From the IMG/VR virus record IMGVR_UViG_2703718868_000011: a DNA stretch of 4,723 nucleotides. One strand, written 5' to 3'. The stretch is from a virus. Taxonomy: Duplodnaviria; Heunggongvirae; Uroviricota; Caudoviricetes. Position numbers and translations under genes: made by a program. Positions within the stretch are counted from its first letter, which is position 1; every line of letters begins with the position of its first letter. Positions 1 through 4,723 of this stretch are shown here, piece by piece. A model generated the notes under the pieces. It saw nothing but the letters and a program-made list of their open reading frames with translations, made no database searches and was not told the origin of the DNA.

Positions 1-879
1 ATGAGCAAAAAGCAGAGTTCCACCCCACACGATGCGCTGTTCAAACTCTTTTTACGCCAACCGGACACGGCTCGTGATTTTCTTGCGTTTCATTTACCGG
101 CACCCATTCACGCGCTTTGTGATATGAAAACCCTCAAGCTGGAGTCGAGCAGCTTTATTGATGACGATCTGCGTGAAAGCTATTCCGATGTGCTGTGGTC
201 GGTGAAAACGGAACAAGGACCAGGATACATCTATTGTCTGATTGAACATCAAAGCACCTCAAACAAACTGATCGCATTTCGCATGATGCGTTACGCTATT
301 GCCGCAATGCAAAATCACCTTGATGCCGGATACAAAACGTTGCCGATGGTGGTGCCATTGTTGTTTTACCACGGTATTGAAAGCCCCTATCCCTATTCGC
401 TGTGTTGGCTGGATTGTTTCGCCGATCCCAAACTGGCAAGGCAGCTTTATGCCTCCGCATTTCCGCTGATTGATGTCACCGTCATGCCTGATGATGAAAT
501 CATGCAGCACCGACGTATGGCGCTGCTGGAGTTAATTCAAAAACATATTCGTCAACGCGACCTGATGGGGCAGGTAGAGCAAATGGCCTGCTTATTAAGT
601 AGTGGATACGCTAATGACAGACAAATCAAAGGGCTGTTTAATTACATACTGCAAACCGGCGACGCGGTACGTTTTAACGATTTTATCGACGGCGTTGCCG
701 AACGTTCACCGAAACACAAGGAGAGTTTAATGACAATTGCGGAAAGATTGCGGCAGGAGGGGGAACAATCCAAAGCCCTGCATATAGCCAAAATAATGCT
801 TGAATCCGGAGTCCCTCTTACAGACATCATGCGCTTTACCGGGGTGTCAGAAGAAGAGTTGGCTGCGGCGAGCCAGTAA
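1..879 (+). CDS. Rpn-family recombination-promoting nuclease (YhgA-like, PD-(D/E)xK fold)
   Basis: Complete 292-aa ORF, ATG at 1, TAA at 877-879. N-terminal [10 protein letters not shown] motif and an Asp ... EHQ ... K arrangement (SYSDVLW / [10 protein letters not shown]) typical of YhgA/Rpn PD-(D/E)xK nucleases. Length fits E. coli RpnA-E (about 290-300 aa). The paralogue cannot be assigned without an alignment. Its promoter lies upstream of the window. Confidence 0.8.
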
Positions 880-978
880 ATTTCTGTCTCGCCATTTCAA
901 AAGTTGCCTACACCCTCTGCTTCAACGCCACCAGCAGGTGGCATAAGGGGGTAGCATGTACCGCACCATCCCTTTATA

Positions 979-991
979 TATCAAATAGTTA
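979..991. promoter_or_regulatory. Candidate IHF binding site in the integrase-distal intergenic region (possible att arm)
   Basis: TATCAAATAGTTA matches the IHF consensus WATCAANNNNTTR at every defined position and follows an AT-rich tract (TTTATATA). It sits about 40 bp beyond the 3' end of the integrase gene, where att sites of integrase-encoding elements usually lie. The consensus is degenerate, so a chance match is possible. Confidence 0.3.
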
Positions 992-1032
992 CAAGTTCAA
1001 AGTGGTTCGAAATCGTGCCATTTAGTCCCCGT

Positions 1033-2028
1033 TTATGGGCAAAATCTGGACAACTCCGCAACCGGATTGAACCTTACCGCGTCCTGGAGATAATCAGGTG
1101 CAAAGTGCGCATAGGTCATTGTTTGCTGAATTGTGCTGTGCCCTAAAATACGCTGAAGGGTAATAATGTTCCCTCCATTTATCATGAAATGAGTTGCGAA
1201 TGTGTGCCGTAAAACATGCACAGACTGACCGACTGGTAAATCAGGCCGCACAGTCCTTATTGCACTTCTGACTATCGCATAACTGGGATTCATTAATCTT
1301 CCAGTCGCTTTGACTTTAATCAGAGATTCAAGATCTTTAGCTATAGGAATAACCCGCCGCGATCCATTCTTTGTCTCCATGAAAATAACCTTCCCACCAA
1401 TTATGTGTTCACCTTTAATATTGGCAACTTCACCCCAGCGCCCGCCTGTAGCCAGGCTTAACAATACAGCCTTAAGATTATCGCCAGATAAAAGTGCGGT
1501 TAGCCTGGGAATATCATCATGTGCAAGATAAGCCATTTCCGGCTGATTAATTGTTAGCTTGCGTATCTCGTGAAACGGGTTATCACCCACAAACTCTTCA
1601 ACATCAATCAGCTTTTCAAAGAAACCACTCATCATTGCACAATAACGATTTACCGTTGACTGCTTAATTCCGCGATTCATTAATTCAAGGCGATATCTGA
1701 TAATATTTTTTCGGGTTAAGTGGTCACTTCTGTTAATACCAAGCTCTTGCATATCACGAAGAACCGCTTCAATTCTGACCCGATTCATCGCGCCATAACG
1801 ATGATTCTTACCGTGGTACACCCACCACAGTTCCAGAAGATCGCTTAACGCTTTACGTTCAATAGGTTTTTCGACCCAGTCCTTATCGTGATAATGCGTC
1901 AGAACATGGCGTTCATACATCGCCGCTTCACCACGGGTAGGAAATCGCCGCCGAAATCTTCTTCCTTCAGATCCAGCAGGCCGCACGTCCACACAGTATT
2001 TGCCATCAGCGAGCTTCTTAATCGACAT
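1033..2028 (-). CDS. int: Tyrosine site-specific integrase, P2-like phage integrase family
   Basis: Minus-strand ORF. Preferred start is the ATG at 2028-2026 (MSIKKLADGKY...), preceded on the coding strand by GGGGG about 8 nt upstream; the track ORF extends to 2064 but that start has no ribosome-binding site. Stop is TAA (complement of 1033-1035). C-terminal catalytic signature is present: HVLRHTFATHF (His-x-x-Arg box), GHSTIQQTMTYAHF (catalytic Tyr). About 331 aa, close to P2 Int size. No terminator-like hairpin between the upstream repressor gene and int, suggesting co-transcription. Confidence 0.9.
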   Translation of the reverse strand: MSIKKLADGKYCVDVRPAGSEGRRFRRRFPTRGEAAMYERHVLTHYHDKDWVEKPIERKALSDLLELWWVYHGKNHRYGAMNRVRIEAVLRDMQELGINRSDHLTRKNIIRYRLELMNRGIKQSTVNRYCAMMSGFFEKLIDVEEFVGDNPFHEIRKLTINQPEMAYLAHDDIPRLTALLSGDNLKAVLLSLATGGRWGEVANIKGEHIIGGKVIFMETKNGSRRVIPIAKDLESLIKVKATGRLMNPSYAIVRSAIRTVRPDLPVGQSVHVLRHTFATHFMINGGNIITLQRILGHSTIQQTMTYAHFAPDYLQDAVRFNPVAELSRFCP

Positions 2029-2094
2029 AAGGAAGCCCCCCAATGAAAACATCATCTTGATCACAATTTTGAGAAATAAAGGCCAGATGGACCG

Positions 2095-2394
2095 TTAACC
2101 AGTCTTCTTGCCGGAGTGGGATGATTCCGCTTCGCTTTGCCCAATGTGTGCGAGAGCCGGTACCACCTGCCCGGCCTTTGGTTCGACCTCATCGAACAAA
2201 AACCAGTCACGGTATTTACGGAAACGAGCGTGCCGCAAAAGAAGGATCCCAAAATCAAGAGGCATCTTAGATTTCCCACTTTCATAGCCATGATATGTAT
2301 AGTAATTAATTCCAATTAAATCAGATAGTTCCTTCATTTTCATCCGTTCAGACTCTCTGATAAGTTTTAATTTCTCATTTTGCGGTATTGACAT
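2095..2394 (-). CDS. Small HTH (XRE-like) immunity repressor, P2 C-type by size and position
   Basis: The 117-aa track ORF was re-started at the internal ATG 2394-2392 (MSIPQNEKLKL...), giving 99 aa, with GGAG (complement of 2407-2410) about 12 nt upstream. Helix-turn-helix pattern in MKELSDLIGINYYTYHGYESGKSKMP. It lies directly upstream of int on the same strand and diverges from the rightward early operon, as does the C repressor of P2 (also about 99 aa). Confidence 0.75.
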   Translation of the reverse strand: MSIPQNEKLKLIRESERMKMKELSDLIGINYYTYHGYESGKSKMPLDFGILLLRHARFRKYRDWFLFDEVEPKAGQVVPALAHIGQSEAESSHSGKKTG

Positions 2395-2416
2395 AATTTT
2401 TCTAATCTCCAATAAT
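2388..2416 (+). promoter_or_regulatory. Candidate rightward early promoter (Pe-like), sigma70-type
   Basis: TTGACA at 2388-2393 (perfect -35), a 17-nt spacer, then AATAAT at 2411-2416 (5/6 match to TATAAT). Predicted start near 2423-2425, about 78 nt upstream of the ATG at 2502. The -35 overlaps the repressor start codon on the other strand. Confidence 0.4.
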
Positions 2417-2418
2417 TT

Positions 2419-2436
2419 TTGTGTATAGCAACACAA
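2419..2436. promoter_or_regulatory. Inverted repeat TTGTGT-N6-ACACAA, candidate operator of the lysis/lysogeny switch
   Basis: Perfect 6-bp arms (TTGTGT / ACACAA) around a 6-bp spacer ATAGCA. It overlaps the predicted start of the rightward promoter and the -10 of the leftward promoter candidate. Confidence 0.4.
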
Positions 2437-2448
2437 GAATAGTCGCAA
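2422..2448 (-). promoter_or_regulatory. Candidate leftward repressor/integrase promoter (Pc-like)
   Basis: On the minus strand, TGcTATACA (complement of 2430-2422) is an extended -10-like element with TTGCGA (complement of 2448-2443) upstream. The spacer is only about 15 nt, so the -35 assignment is weak. The predicted start near 2415 would give a short leader with the GGAG before the repressor ATG. Confidence 0.25.
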
Positions 2449-2501
2449 TTGGTTCTACATGGTCCCTATTCGAAAAAGGGGCCAATAACGGAGGATACCA
2501 G

Positions 2502-2927
2502 ATGCAAGAAGTCACTCAAAACGCGCCTGAATCGCCTGCCGAAACACAGTGCGATCAGTTGACAGATGCGCCAGAAACCGCACACCTGAAGACCAGCCGC
2601 AAAGCCCCTGAACGCCAGGAAATCCGGCTTTCACAAAACCCTTCTCATCTCCTGTCAAAAGAAGGGTTTGCGATGTATATCGGCAAGACCGTTGACGCCA
2701 TCGTGAGCATGGCAAAAGCAGGGAAATTACCCGCTGTGTACATGGCGGACCCTCTCAAGCCTGGCGGAAACGCCGAACTCTACATCAACCGGAAAGCGTG
2801 GGATGAAGCCTGCGATCGACTCACTGAAAACGCACCGCAAGAATGGCACGAATGGGAAAACCGACTTTTTTTATTTAAGCCAGCAGCTGGTTCACGGAAT
2901 AAACGCATCAGTAAAAAAGCTGCGTGA
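2502..2927 (+). CDS. Excisionase/Cox-like winged-helix DNA-binding protein, first gene of the rightward early operon
   Basis: ATG at 2502 preceded by GGAGG (2489-2493) 8 nt upstream; TGA at 2925-2927; 141 aa. The track ORF begins at a GTG at 2421 with no ribosome-binding site. The segment FAMYIGKTVDAIVSMAKAGKLPAVYMADP resembles the DNA-binding core of Xis/Cox/AlpA-type proteins. Alternative start at ATG 2673 (GAAGGG 6 nt upstream) would give 84 aa, closer to the sizes of P2 Cox and 186 Apl. Position matches cox/apl in P2-like phages. Confidence 0.65.
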   Translation: MQEVTQNAPESPAETQCDQLTDAPETAHLKTSRKAPERQEIRLSQNPSHLLSKEGFAMYIGKTVDAIVSMAKAGKLPAVYMADPLKPGGNAELYINRKAWDEACDRLTENAPQEWHEWENRLFLFKPAAGSRNKRISKKAA

Positions 2928-2957
2928 TATAGAACTGGCAATCATTGGAGGGGCAAG

Positions 2958-3188
2958 ATGATTAAACACACGGAAATCAGACAAAGAATAAAAATAAGCG
3001 ACGACGCTTCAGTAATAATCTGTAATCAGAACTTAGATGCCATTGTTCGGGCTGGCAACGATTTGTATTTCCATTACCCGACCCATTGCATCGTTGTGAC
3101 ATTTGAAACAGAAGAGTCCTTAAAAAATGCAATGGAGCAGACAGGATTTCAGAATGAAACAGTAATAAGAAAAGACAACTGGGCATAA
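2958..3188 (+). CDS. Hypothetical small protein (76 aa), early operon
   Basis: ATG 2958 with GGAGG (2947-2951) 6 nt upstream; TAA at 3186-3188. Only 30 nt after the preceding stop. No recognisable motif. Confidence 0.6.
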   Translation: MIKHTEIRQRIKISDDASVIICNQNLDAIVRAGNDLYFHYPTHCIVVTFETEESLKNAMEQTGFQNETVIRKDNWA

Positions 3189-3240
3189 ATGCCAATACAC
3201 CGTTATTTCAATTCTTTTAACTTAAGCGGGTTTTTCCGAT

Positions 3241-3576
3241 ATGACACAGCGACGCAACTTCCGCACTGGCACAGAACGCCACGCAGCCCGTTTCTCAACC
3301 AGTGCATCACGCAGCAACACGCACTACAGCCTGCAGGAAACGCACGCCACACCTGACGGGCATCCGGTTAAACAAACCGGTAAACACACCTGGCTGATTA
3401 ATGATGCCGGAATTGTCATTCACCGGGGCGCACGCAACCCGATTACCGGGAATACCTGTTACTCCCTGACTCGCGGAGATGAGCAGTTCGGGCAGGATTT
3501 CACCCTGCACGAAGCATTAAGAACGGCAGACCGATTAATCAGCGGTCGCAGTTTTCAGCATCCATGGGGGAATTAA
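3241..3576 (+). CDS. Hypothetical protein (111 aa) in a GC-rich segment; coding status uncertain
   Basis: Longest ORF in the segment and on the operon strand, but there is no ribosome-binding site before ATG 3241 and the N-terminal half is Arg/Thr/Ser/His-rich and low in complexity. The C-terminal half (WLINDAGIVIHRGARNPITGNTCYSLTRGDEQFGQDFTLHEALRTADRLISG) looks more protein-like. Its stop (TAA 3574-3576) lies 3 nt before the next start. Confidence 0.4.
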   Translation: MTQRRNFRTGTERHAARFSTSASRSNTHYSLQETHATPDGHPVKQTGKHTWLINDAGIVIHRGARNPITGNTCYSLTRGDEQFGQDFTLHEALRTADRLISGRSFQHPWGN

Positions 3577-3579
3577 TAC

Positions 3580-3834
3580 ATGGCAACAACGACAAAAGAC
3601 ATGGCAGAGATAGCATCAGCCTACACAATTATCATACACCGGCTCATAGCTAATAATGCCCGTAATGCACTAAATACAGCAAAACCTTTATGGGAAACAA
3701 AAAAAGATATCATCAGCGCATTACAGGGGCTACAGAAATGCGCCGACCTCGCAGGCGATTACGCCGCATACATGGCTATTGAAGACACGATAGAGAAGAT
3801 TGAATCAGGTAAATCATTAAGCGATTTTGTTTAA
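3580..3834 (+). CDS. Hypothetical small protein (84 aa), early operon
   Basis: ATG 3580 with GGGGG (3566-3570) 9 nt upstream; TAA at 3832-3834. Tightly packed behind the previous ORF. Composition suggests a helical protein; no motif recognised. Confidence 0.6.
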   Translation: MATTTKDMAEIASAYTIIIHRLIANNARNALNTAKPLWETKKDIISALQGLQKCADLAGDYAAYMAIEDTIEKIESGKSLSDFV

Positions 3835-3854
3835 TTGTTTTCCGGGGAAATACA

Positions 3855-4097
3855 ATGGACAAAGAATATAAGGTTCTCATCAATAAAGCCCTTGAGCGCT
3901 TTAACTTTCGCCTGAGTATGTCAGGAGTTGCCGCAGAACATGCAGCAAGAGACTCACTGACCAGAGCAATTCGCAGCCTGTATGATGCAGCTTTTTACGC
4001 TGACGATCTGGATGCTCTCAATGAGCTGTCTGAGCTTGTTCGTGATGCAGAATGCGGAGTACATATTGAGCCATACGCACTTGGGAATGCAGCATGA
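3855..4097 (+). CDS. Hypothetical small acidic protein (80 aa), early operon
   Basis: ATG 3855 with GGGGAAA about 7 nt upstream; TGA at 4095-4097, which overlaps the next start as ATGA. No motif recognised. Confidence 0.6.
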   Translation: MDKEYKVLINKALERFNFRLSMSGVAAEHAARDSLTRAIRSLYDAAFYADDLDALNELSELVRDAECGVHIEPYALGNAA

Positions 4098-4219
4098 GCG
4101 TATTTCTTTCATGGGTGATTCTGATTATTTCCGTGCTTATGGCGATTGGCATTATGCGAATTATCGAAGCGCTGAAAAATATCGAATCTTTATTTACTGG
4201 CGAAGAACGCCGTAAATAA
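4094..4219 (+). CDS. Small hydrophobic protein (41 aa), predicted single transmembrane helix; not in the supplied ORF track
   Basis: ATG 4094-4096 overlaps the upstream stop (ATGA), a typical translational-coupling arrangement; GGGA lies about 8 nt upstream. Translation: MSVFLSWVILIISVLMAIGIMRIIEALKNIESLFTGEERRK. Residues 3-24 form a hydrophobic stretch, followed by a charged tail. TAA at 4217-4219. It fills a gap of about 200 bp in an otherwise tightly packed operon. Confidence 0.45.
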   Translation: MSVFLSWVILIISVLMAIGIMRIIEALKNIESLFTGEERRK

Positions 4220-4298
4220 ATAACCAACCGGACAGAAAACATTAAAACCATCCGCATCTGCGGAGGGCTTCACTCAATCCAGAAACGGAGAAACAGCT

Positions 4299-4577
4299 AT
4301 GAGCACCAATACACCTACAGAAATAAACAAACTATTTACCGACCCGGCGCATATTGAATTGACGCAAAAAACGCTGACTGAAATAACCAATGTACTGGAT
4401 GAAAGAATATCAGAAATAGATAAAGACAAGCATTTTGCCACCTACATGGCCCTGCAAATGCAAAGCATGGCAATGGTGACAGCAAAACAGACCATCAGTG
4501 AACTCTATATGAAAAACCTGCGCCTCGAGCGCGAACTGGCAGAACTCCGGGCACAGTCCGGCCAGTTTTCAGCGTGA
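4299..4577 (+). CDS. Hypothetical protein (92 aa) with a likely coiled-coil C-terminus
   Basis: ATG 4299 with GGAG (4287-4290) 8 nt upstream; TGA at 4575-4577. The C-terminal LYMKNLRLERELAELRAQ is heptad-like. No motif recognised. Confidence 0.6.
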   Translation: MSTNTPTEINKLFTDPAHIELTQKTLTEITNVLDERISEIDKDKHFATYMALQMQSMAMVTAKQTISELYMKNLRLERELAELRAQSGQFSA

Positions 4578-4588
4578 GGGGCAGGTCG

Positions 4589-4723
4589 ATGAACAGCATA
4601 TTTACCGCCACCATGCTGACGCGTTTCACCGATGCCGTGGGCCACGAGTTCATGGTGGAAAGTCATTTGATCACAACGACCACGCCGTGCCCGTCAGACG
4701 CTGATTATCTCTACATCCATCTG
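4589..4723 (+). CDS. 5' end of a further gene, truncated by the window edge (product unknown)
   Basis: ATG 4589 with GAGGGG (4576-4581) about 8 nt upstream, 11 nt after the previous stop. Open for 45 codons to the window end (MNSIFTATMLTRFTDAVGHEFMVESHL...). By position in a P2-like early operon it could start a larger replication gene, but the sequence itself shows nothing that confirms this. Confidence 0.45.
   Translation, partial: MNSIFTATMLTRFTDAVGHEFMVESHLITTTTPCPSDADYLYIHL

Follow-up and report, generated by a model that had tools for sequence, protein, structure and literature searches.

The window analysed here, a stretch of 4,723 nt, begins with host DNA and continues, in all likelihood, into the first genes of a P2-type prophage (Table 1). 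Two of these genes, int and C, read leftward and a Cox-like gene reads rightward, as the preliminary description of this DNA had it; all three open reading frames lie on the strands claimed, with two coordinates slightly corrected. The identities of the genes, their order and their homology to Int, C and Cox of P2 are established by pairwise alignments and by Pfam, PDB and PHROG matches, and the P2 layout proposed earlier holds. With E-values from 1e-5 to 1e-103, the three genes are not chance open reading frames.

Table 1. Features of the window, in order of position.
Feature	Position	Strand	Basis
Host bioH 3' remnant (last ~12 codons and stop), severed by the prophage	908-946	-	Empty-site comparison
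attL core GCCACC-AGCA-GGTGGC, inverted repeat	927-942	.	Three-way comparison
int, P2-type tyrosine integrase, 331 aa	1033-2028	-	Pfam, PHROG, P2 Int homology
Candidate P' arm-type Int sites, TATGGGCA (1034-1041) and TCTGGACA (1045-1052)	1034-1052	+	P2-type consensus
C, P2-type immunity repressor, 99 aa	2095-2394	-	P2 C homology, PDB, PHROG
Candidate early promoter Pe: TTGACA (2388-2393), 17-nt spacer, AATAAT (2411-2416)	2388-2416	+	Promoter scan
Candidate C operator half-sites, ATAATTTTT direct repeat	2393-2401 and 2412-2420	+	Repeat search
Expected Pc (leftward promoter) region, two weak hand-read candidates	2422-2519	-	Read from sequence
Stem-loop UGGUCCCU / AGGGGCCA, 8 bp	2460-2484	+	Minimum-energy fold of Pe leader
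cox, long-form, 141 aa	2502-2927	+	Pfam Phage_Cox, PDB 4LHF
Early operon start past cox	2958-4723	+	ORFs, Pfam, PHROGs, P88 homologues
76-aa ORF	2958-3188	+	
DUF4761 ORF	3241-3576	+	Pfam
84-aa ORF	3580-3834	+	
DUF4754 ORF	3855-4097	+	Pfam
41-aa ORF	4094-4219	+	
92-aa ORF	4299-4577	+	
ORF running off the window end	4589-4723	+	

The maximal open reading frame of int spans 1033-2064 (GTG start, 343 aa). The coding sequence is likely to begin at the ATG at 2028 (MSIKKL), since this start matches that of P2 Int (MAIKKL) and yields a protein of 331 aa, as long as the annotated integrases of P88, pro483 and RefSeq genomes. Its product matches the Pfam families Int_N (1e-19) and Phage_integrase (3e-15) as well as PHROG 1, integrase (4e-65), and is 43.5% identical to P2 Int over 324 aa; this alignment shows conservation of the catalytic R, K, HxxR, H and Y, and at the N-terminus Y, D and R are those of the P2 type. 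Two direct repeats, 11 bp apart and straddling the int stop codon, are candidate arm-type sites, TATGGGCA having two mismatches and TCTGGACA one to the P2-type arm-site consensus tgTGGaCa (PMC3448106). The annotated P' arm of P2 has the same 11-bp period and the same position over the 3' end of int. The P arm of the present copy falls outside the window; that of the attP reconstructed from a 99%-identical relative contains the same tandem, TATGGCAAAATGTGGACA. Judging from these resemblances, Int would bind at the two candidate sites.

The repressor had been described as equal in length to P2 C, and indeed the two proteins align over 99/99 residues, with 45.5% identity. It also matches PDB entries 2XCJ/2L49, 'C protein' (6e-24, residues 5-99 vs 5-99), and PHROG 147 (4e-33). 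As int starts 66 nt past the C stop codon and a scan of this strand revealed neither a promoter nor a terminator between them, co-transcription of C and int is plausible. Rightward, the Cox-like maximal open reading frame covers 2421-2927, and the coding sequence likely starts at the ATG at 2502, which is preceded by GGAGG 7 nt upstream. The protein matches Pfam Phage_Cox (1.1e-27, residues 40-120) and P2 Cox in the PDB (4LHF, 1e-5), and is 35% identical to P2 Cox over 68 aa. By these matches it is a homologue of the winged-helix excisionases and Pc repressors, extended by about 45 aa at its N-terminus; larger 'group 2' Cox proteins have been described (PMC3448106). It is the first rightward open reading frame past the switch, in agreement with the suggestion that a Cox-like gene heads the opposed early operon.

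Between C and cox lies an intergenic region of 107 nt; its counterpart has 114 nt in P2 and ranges from 93 to 109 nt in relatives. The candidate Pe in this region, which agrees with the consensus at 11 of 12 positions, was the top site of the promoter scan in 850-3300. Its -35 hexamer overlaps the C start codon (2392-2394), as in the annotated Pe of P2, and this overlap is kept in the switches of P88, L026 and pro483. Among the direct repeats in the switch, ATAATTTTT is the longest; its two copies, 19 nt from start to start, bracket and overlap the Pe -10 like O1/O2 of P2. A repeat of at least 9 nt arose in only 18 of 2000 dinucleotide shuffles, and the same script recovers the experimental O1/O2 of P2 (GTTTAGAT). 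In pro483, which has the same HTH, ATAATTTTG and ATTATATTG stand at the matching half-site positions. We thus regard the ATAATTTTT copies as putative C-binding half-sites, and they would offer a candidate operator for an immunity class without biochemical study. Half-sites are spaced by 22 nt in P2 and by 34 nt in W-phi, and the 19 nt found here speaks against the reading.

No leftward promoter in the switch exceeded the threshold of the promoter scan, and both Pc candidates read by hand are sub-threshold: (a) TTGCGA (2448-2443), a 15-nt spacer and TATACA (2427-2422) with TG in front, and (b) TTGAGT (2519-2514), a 16-nt spacer and TATCCT (2497-2492). The start of the C transcript is predicted near 2415 or near 2485. 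Candidate (b) resembles the arrangement in P2, in which Pc is found just upstream of cox and the C transcript would start at a hairpin. The predicted stem-loop at 2460-2484 sits just upstream of the cox ribosome-binding site. Heteroimmune relatives retain it as GGTGCT / AGCACC; a comparison of 4 sequences gave one compensatory change and one wobble change, which is too thin for a functional claim. Cox boxes common to the att arm (947-1060) and the switch (2417-2501) were also sought (9-mers, at most one mismatch); no significant motif emerged, the one shared 9-mer being equalled in 240 of 300 shuffles.

If the analogy with P2 is followed, in lysogeny a weak leftward promoter would drive C and, further along the same transcript, int. 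C dimers would then bind two directly repeated half-sites (the candidates at 2393 and 2412), and because these half-sites bracket the -10 of the strong rightward Pe, bound C would silence the early operon. In lytic growth, on the other hand, Pe would fire and Cox would be made first; Cox may then repress Pc and serve as the directionality factor in Int-mediated excision at the att sites.

The left boundary of the element was mapped by comparing the window with an empty bioH site and with the attL and attR of a 99%-identical prophage in NZ_AP045178. At the empty site (E. coli E2863, L002), rpnA is followed by a convergent bioH, and the window matches this arrangement through 946. Clearly bacterial sequence runs to 936 and clearly phage sequence starts at 941, which places the crossover within GGTG (937-940) and establishes the attL junction. 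The att core is the hairpin GCCACC-N4-GGTGGC, the same as in the published P88 attP core GCCACCCGAAGGTG (PMC5285337) and unrelated to the P2 core AAAAAATAAGCCCGTGTAAGGGAGATT, so that the impression that this core differs from that of P2 was right. Also upheld is the remark that the integration site is not a tRNA, as the window has neither a tRNA nor an Rfam match; nor does any structured RNA lie at the att site. As to duplication of the core, which had been proposed as a check, attL and attR of a relative (H3) share the 16-bp core, one copy at each prophage end.

The normal target of this family of elements is the terminator hairpin downstream of ytfP, in the ytfP/chpS intergenic region. We established this primary attB by reconstruction: genomes free of the prophage have it uninterrupted and with 100% identity, and it is at least 80% covered in 5200 of 5426 genomes. 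In the present case, Int would have recombined the phage core GCCACC-CGAA-GGTGGC with a look-alike, GCCACC-AGCA-GGTG, in the last codons of bioH, which would make bioH a secondary site in relation to the ytfP hairpin. The complete prophage would be expected to comprise about 30-36 kb of P2-like genes and to end in ...TTTTCGC-GCCACC-NNNN-GGTG-ACAAAACTCGACC, fused to the body of bioH.

Past cox, the early open reading frames include matches to PHROGs 2492 and 2549, and P88 gp04, gp06 and gp07 are homologues of early open reading frames at 66-82% identity. In relatives 99% identical to this DNA, the same string of open reading frames extends to the gpA replication endonuclease, and on this ground the downstream small open reading frames belong to the early operon, as had been suspected. 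Relatives that are 99% identical to 923-4723, in other E. coli genomes, carry genes for gpA, Ogr, portal, terminase, the GPO scaffold and the P2-family capsid, with the Q-P-O-N-M-L capsid module and tail genes among them; flanking phage genes, the other check proposed at the outset, are thus present there. We therefore consider 941-4723 to be the integrase-proximal end of a P88-like prophage with a P2-type Int-C-Cox lysogeny switch, a reading to which we would assign, from sequence comparison, a probability of about 90%. The window covers the first 3.8 kb of the prophage; any structural genes and attR would lie beyond 4723, and by comparison with the 99%-identical relatives the present copy would probably be a complete prophage.

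It could be argued that the element is instead a defective remnant or a P2-derived satellite, in which the int-C-cox arm and some early genes stand alone. The visible phage DNA amounts to only 3.8 kb, and related copies do show decay: cox is frameshifted in L006 and L011, and in NZ_AP045178 tail genes and an ash gene are pseudogenes. Yet every open reading frame in the window is intact, 923-4723 is 99% identical to prophages with a whole P2-like gene set, and Pfam and PHROG searches found the satellite hallmarks (P4-type primase, Sid/Psu, AlpA) absent from the window. We find a remnant or satellite improbable, and a satellite in particular unlikely because the 99%-identical copies in other E. 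coli are full-length P2-like prophages. A P4-like satellite or a PICI was rejected on protein homology and gene content. Of the two possibilities raised before, a prophage arm or a P2-derived satellite, the first stands, with support from the 99%-identical full-length relatives, and the second is not favoured.

Another question is whether the junction itself is real. The prophage might lie at the ytfP site and have been joined to bioH only in assembly, through the shared hairpin CAACGCCACC....GGTG, as CAACGCCACC is present at the bioH site and also in the flank of the primary site on the chpS side. This idea draws on the rarity of the junction: the rpnA/bioH-int arrangement occurs in 0 of 5426 complete E. 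coli genomes in RefSeq, and neither the exact attL junction nor the predicted attR pattern has a match in metagenome or GTDB representative contigs. Nevertheless, the shared stretch is about 10 + 4 nt, far below assembler overlap lengths, and attL has the loop of the bioH site, AGCA, and then the phage arm, as a real GGTG crossover would leave it. Exact-protein look-ups of Int and Cox returned other sites only. An identical Int also occupies two other non-canonical sites, adjoining a truncated TPP-enzyme gene at one and a glycosyl hydrolase family 8 gene (in a cellulose-synthase cluster) at the other. It is known that P2-family phages use secondary sites. An assembly artefact seems to us very unlikely.

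Least credible of all, with hardly any weight left to it, is a switch of the 186 type (CI, Apl, CII, SOS-inducible via Tum) rather than of the P2 type: 186 does share the layout of int and repressor leftward and excisionase/regulator rightward, and relatives of the present element have a 'derepression protein' gene further along the early operon, but the repressor of 99 aa aligns end to end with P2 C, while 186 CI is about twice the size of C and does not align to it (PMC3448106), the rightward gene matches Phage_Cox and P2 Cox, Int has the P2-type Y, D and R at its N-terminus, the candidate arm sites follow the tgTGGaCa pattern, and the open reading frame list of the module contains neither a CI-sized repressor nor a cII homologue. 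A 186-type switch would be expected to have a CI of about 190 aa, cII, tgccGCCActt arm sites and a tRNA att; a P2 C homologue, P2-type arms and no tRNA were found, and this candidate was rejected.

Taken together, a genuine secondary-site integration of a P88-like prophage into the 3' coding end of bioH, with a re-closed BioH frame and a chimeric repressor, appears to us probable, though less firmly so than the prophage assignment itself. If this is true, the right arm of the phage would re-close the BioH frame, with a predicted end ...EFCHL(L/R)VARKLM-stop vs the native ...EFCHLLVALKQRV-stop, and biotin synthesis would survive lysogeny. In that event bioH would be an additional secondary attachment site for an integrase which normally targets the ytfP terminator hairpin. 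The element (Peduoviridae, Xuanwuvirus-related, in E. coli) is of an already known kind, and its sole unusual point is its location at the 3' end of bioH as opposed to the usual site of the family. The value of the result lies mainly in annotation: in the window, host DNA with rpnA and the tail of bioH runs into the left end of a P88-like prophage, which gives a frame for reading the downstream small open reading frames as early-operon genes.

Among known systems, P2 (NC_001895) shares with the present element the gene order and orientation, a 99-aa C, and integration outside tRNA genes. The candidate Pe and the putative half-sites and arm sites described here also have P2 counterparts: the -35 covers the C start codon, direct repeats surround the -10, and a pair of arm-type Int sites with an 11-bp period lies over the 3' end of int. 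The proteins, however, are just 35-45% identical, Cox has 91 aa in P2 and 141 aa here, and the operator is GTTTAGAT with a spacing of 22 nt in P2, whereas it would be ATAATTTTT with 19 nt here. The att cores are unrelated, and the early genes past cox also differ, there being no orf78 or gpB homologue within the window. The description of the element as P2-like was thus correct as to family and can be refined, in that its nearest named relative is not P2 but phage P88 (Xuanwuvirus P88, Peduoviridae; NC_026014).

P88 has the same string of int, C, long Cox, DUF4761, small open reading frame, DUF4754 and 37-41-aa open reading frame, and the same att core. Its Int is 80% and its Cox 83% identical, and its C hardly differs over the C-terminal half. 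In a Megablast search against isolated phages P88 was the sole match; the aligned stretch, int with part of C, is about 76% identical. At window position 2223, however, the nucleotide match to P88 breaks off, and the two show no relationship in the N-terminal half of C, which holds the HTH, or in the left two thirds of the switch DNA. P88 and the present element are therefore probably heteroimmune. The P88 site is the ytfP/chpS intergenic hairpin, as opposed to bioH here.

The missing half of this likeness is supplied by pro483 and its relatives (Peduovirus; NC_028943, P24E6b, D8, 11W), whose repressors surfaced only by protein-level search, Megablast against isolated phages being insufficient. 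Their C also has 99 aa and is 70.7% identical, with residues 7-44 (HTH) almost identical; the promoter-proximal switch DNA CATAATTTT.CTAATCTCCAAT is conserved, and Cox is long as well (122 aa in pro483). The near-identical HTH together with the conserved switch DNA suggests an immunity specificity the same as, or close to, that of pro483. On the other side, Int of pro483 (pro383-group) is 58% and Cox 58.5% identical, the C-terminal tail of C is unlike, and pro483 has a P2-type early operon (gpB, DUF2732 and orf81 homologues). C of the present element would therefore be a natural chimera of a pro483-type DNA-binding half and a P88-type C-terminal half, and such a mosaic would illustrate the swapping of immunity specificity between the Peduovirus and Xuanwuvirus lineages.

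Integrase, repressor and excisionase all lie where the preliminary description had placed them in the ORF listing, and the repressor, C, is exactly 99 aa long, as it had stated. Each of the three is similar to its P2 counterpart. Int shows 43.5% identity to P2 Int over 324 aa (80% to P88 Int), and in this alignment it retains the catalytic Arg, Lys, HxxR, His and Tyr. C shows 45.5% identity to P2 C across 99/99 residues (55% to P88 C), and a PDB search aligned its residues 5-99 with residues 5-99 of P2 C (2XCJ/2L49, E 6e-24). Cox shows 35% identity to P2 Cox over 68 aa (83% to P88 Cox) and retrieved P2 Cox, 4LHF, at E 1e-5. Its N-terminal extension of about 45 residues has more variable counterparts in P88 and pro483, and a survey of P2-like regulatory regions describes a second, larger group of Cox proteins (PMC3448106). 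The likeliest start codon of int is the ATG at 2028 (331 aa, MSIKKL...), not the GTG at 2064, because P2 Int (MAIKKL...), P88 Int, pro483 Int and identical RefSeq copies use the same start; for cox, 2502 is the most likely start, not the GTG at 2421, because GGAGG sits 7 nt 5' of it.

Features of the window, with candidate leftward promoters
Feature	Position	Strand	Basis or remark
rpnA	1-879	+	ORF listing and family scans
Integrase ORF (maximal)	1033-2064	-	ORF listing and family scans
99-aa helix-turn-helix protein (C)	2095-2394	-	ORF listing and family scans
Intergenic region, 107 nt	2395-2501	.	between C and cox
141-aa Phage_Cox protein	2502-2927	+	ORF listing and family scans
Small ORFs: 76 aa, DUF4761, 84 aa, DUF4754, 41 aa, 92 aa, one off the window end	2958-4723	+	
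Pc candidate, overlaps Pe, extended -10 TGcTATACA	2430-2422	-	sub-threshold
Pc candidate just inside cox: TTGAGT, 16-nt spacer, TATCCT		-	sub-threshold; would mimic the P2 arrangement

The cox gene is frameshifted in two related prophages (L006 9102-9527 and L011 9102-9527), appearing as two ORFs or truncated, which might lock these elements in place. Between cox and the DUF4761 gene (2928-3240), comparison of the window with seven related loci (L006, L007, L009, L010, L012, L013, L015) revealed a variable cargo slot. In the window it is occupied by the 76-aa ORF, which matches no family and has a strong ribosome-binding site; in relatives, by a reverse-strand 145-aa ORF, a 163-aa and 107-aa pair, or a 181-aa and 72-aa pair.

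A scan of 850-3300 for sigma-70-like promoters gave one strong site, a candidate rightward early promoter Pe matching 11/12 positions (TTGACA, 2388-2393; 17-nt spacer; AATAAT, 2411-2416). Its -35 hexamer runs into the start codon of C (2392-2394), as happens in P2, where the annotated Pe -35 is at 25884-25889 and C starts at 25888-25890; this overlap, as TTGACAT, is also found in P88-type and pro483 switches. The DNA bound by P2 C is a pair of direct repeats, GTTTAGAT, that lie 22 nt apart and bracket the Pe -10, and the W-phi C repeats are 34 nt apart (PMC1904263; PMC2995052). The longest direct repeat in our switch, ATAATTTTT (2393-2401 and 2412-2420), occupies the equivalent positions, although with a spacing of 19 nt rather than 22 nt, and may thus represent the C half-sites. 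A repeat of this length arose in only 18 of 2000 dinucleotide shuffles, and the same script recovered the true O1/O2 half-sites of P2. No leftward promoter (Pc) for C and int exceeded the scan threshold in the switch, and two sub-threshold candidates are listed in the table. Just 5' of the cox Shine-Dalgarno sequence lies an 8-bp stem-loop (2460-2484). Heteroimmune relatives retain it with a single compensatory change and a single wobble change (GGTGCT/AGCACC in P88-type switches), and it is comparable to the inverted repeat AGTGC...GCACT beside the P2 Pc start. Cox would presumably bind both in the switch and at att; no Cox-box-like motif common to the switch and the att arm rose above shuffles.

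The repressor itself is a mosaic, since its helix-turn-helix half is of the pro483 (Peduovirus) type and its C-terminal half of the P88 type. Among isolated phages, the former is almost identical to its counterpart in pro483 and related phages (70.7% identity over the whole of C), and the latter is nearly identical to P88; nucleotide similarity to P88 ends at 2223, near the breakpoint in C. In the pro483 switch the promoter-proximal DNA is retained and both half-sites recur in degenerate form; in immunity, the prophage in the window is probably of the pro483 type, not the P88 type.

As regards attachment, both ends of the 99%-identical prophage in NZ_AP045178 share a 16-bp core, GCCACCCGAAGGTGGC (L001, attL region, 20005-20020; L003, attR region, 12884-12899), the first 14 nt of which are the attP reported for P88 (PMC5285337). 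The attB obtained by joining the outer flanks is intact, at 100% identity, 3' of ytfP in prophage-free E. coli, and is covered to at least 80% in 5200 of 5426 genomes. It forms a hairpin on the ytfP strand that looks like the ytfP terminator because a T-tract, GTTGTTTTTT, follows. Once the prophage has integrated, the T-tract lies behind int (attL), and attR consists of ytfP followed by the hairpin without it. Candidate P2-type arm sites, TATGGGCA and TCTGGACA, lie 11 bp apart over the int stop codon, as the arm sites of P2 do, and the P arm of the attP reconstructed from the 99%-identical relative contains the matching pair. The core bears no resemblance to that of P2, and no tRNA was found in the window, both as the preliminary description had suspected; nor did the window match any Rfam family.

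The window itself records a different site. In the empty locus of E. coli E2863 (L002), rpnA is followed by convergent bioH, and host identity extends to 946; therefore only the last 12 or so bioH codons (908-946) are retained. Comparison of the window junction, CAAC-GCCACC-AGCA-GGTG-GCATAAGGGGG, with the empty site, CAAC-GCCACC-AGCA-GGTG-ACAAAAC, places the crossover in GGTG (937-940). The bioH site matches both stems of the core, not its 4-nt centre. This junction is unlikely to be an artefact, although neither it nor the predicted attR was found in 5426 complete E. coli genomes, metagenome contigs or GTDB genome contigs; a bioH-type centre joined to a phage arm argues for a real recombination event. 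bioH is interrupted 10-12 codons short of its stop. Provided that the insertion is real, the right arm, taken from the 99%-identical relative, would restore the BioH frame with an altered tail, the predicted C-terminus reading ...EFCHL(L/R)VARKLM instead of the native ...EFCHLLVALKQRV and being one residue shorter.

Megablast against the 5426 complete E. coli genomes matched 923-4723 to NZ_AP045178 at 99% identity, and to a few others with somewhat less coverage. Relatives of the int-C-cox block were detectable in only 38 of the genomes. Exact Int and Cox protein look-ups returned many more such prophages. Farther on, the NZ_AP045178 element has more small genes of the early operon and one for a derepression protein, then a gpA-type replication endonuclease, Ogr/Delta, portal, large terminase and GPO scaffold, together with a P2-family major capsid, small terminase, lysis and tail genes. 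The P2-like replication and structural genes sought beyond the window are thus present in this relative. Of the two options first proposed, the arm of a P2-like prophage stands and the P2-derived satellite is disfavoured: the window stops before a decisive gene, but the 99%-identical element and other relatives carry the whole P2-like gene set, so a full prophage is far more likely, and this copy is presumably complete.

The tail region of that relative (L001 36901-43802, L003 14691-22401; DUF2586, DUF2590, baseplate J) is annotated unlike the P88 and P2 tail modules and holds pseudogenised tail-fibre genes. In relatives the early operon includes an ash-family gene along with one for a 'derepression protein' (PF25738), at L001 24707-25248, about 1.5 kb past the window-end match, a hint that an antirepressor could mediate induction. 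Classical P2 is non-inducible. P88 was obtained following treatment with mitomycin C (PMC5285337).

The common integration site is the ytfP/chpS hairpin. An identical 331-aa Int also lies beside a truncated TPP-enzyme gene and beside a glycosyl hydrolase family 8 gene of the cellulose-synthase cluster (L010, L011), loci which, by gene order, we take to be oxc-yfdV and bcsZ; the attL cores (L010 10997-11140 and L011 10997-11140) read GACACCCCA-GGTGGC and GCCGCC-CGAA-GGTGGC. Evidently this integrase can act at secondary sites, a behaviour known from P2, and the bioH insertion site is the only unusual detail of the prophage.

As far as sequence can tell, the module is a P2-type Int-C-Cox switch, and a 186-type switch was rejected on its own sequence-testable features. 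Gene homology, P2-like relatives and the att core all support the P2-type lysogeny switch initially proposed. The finding is an ordinary one: public genomes already hold identical or near-identical copies, annotated as phage integrase, HTH protein and Cox-family protein, and one member of the family, P88 (Xuanwuvirus, Peduoviridae), has been isolated and sequenced and its att core published. P88 is also the closest isolated phage by DNA, its identity being 76% across int and the 3' part of C.
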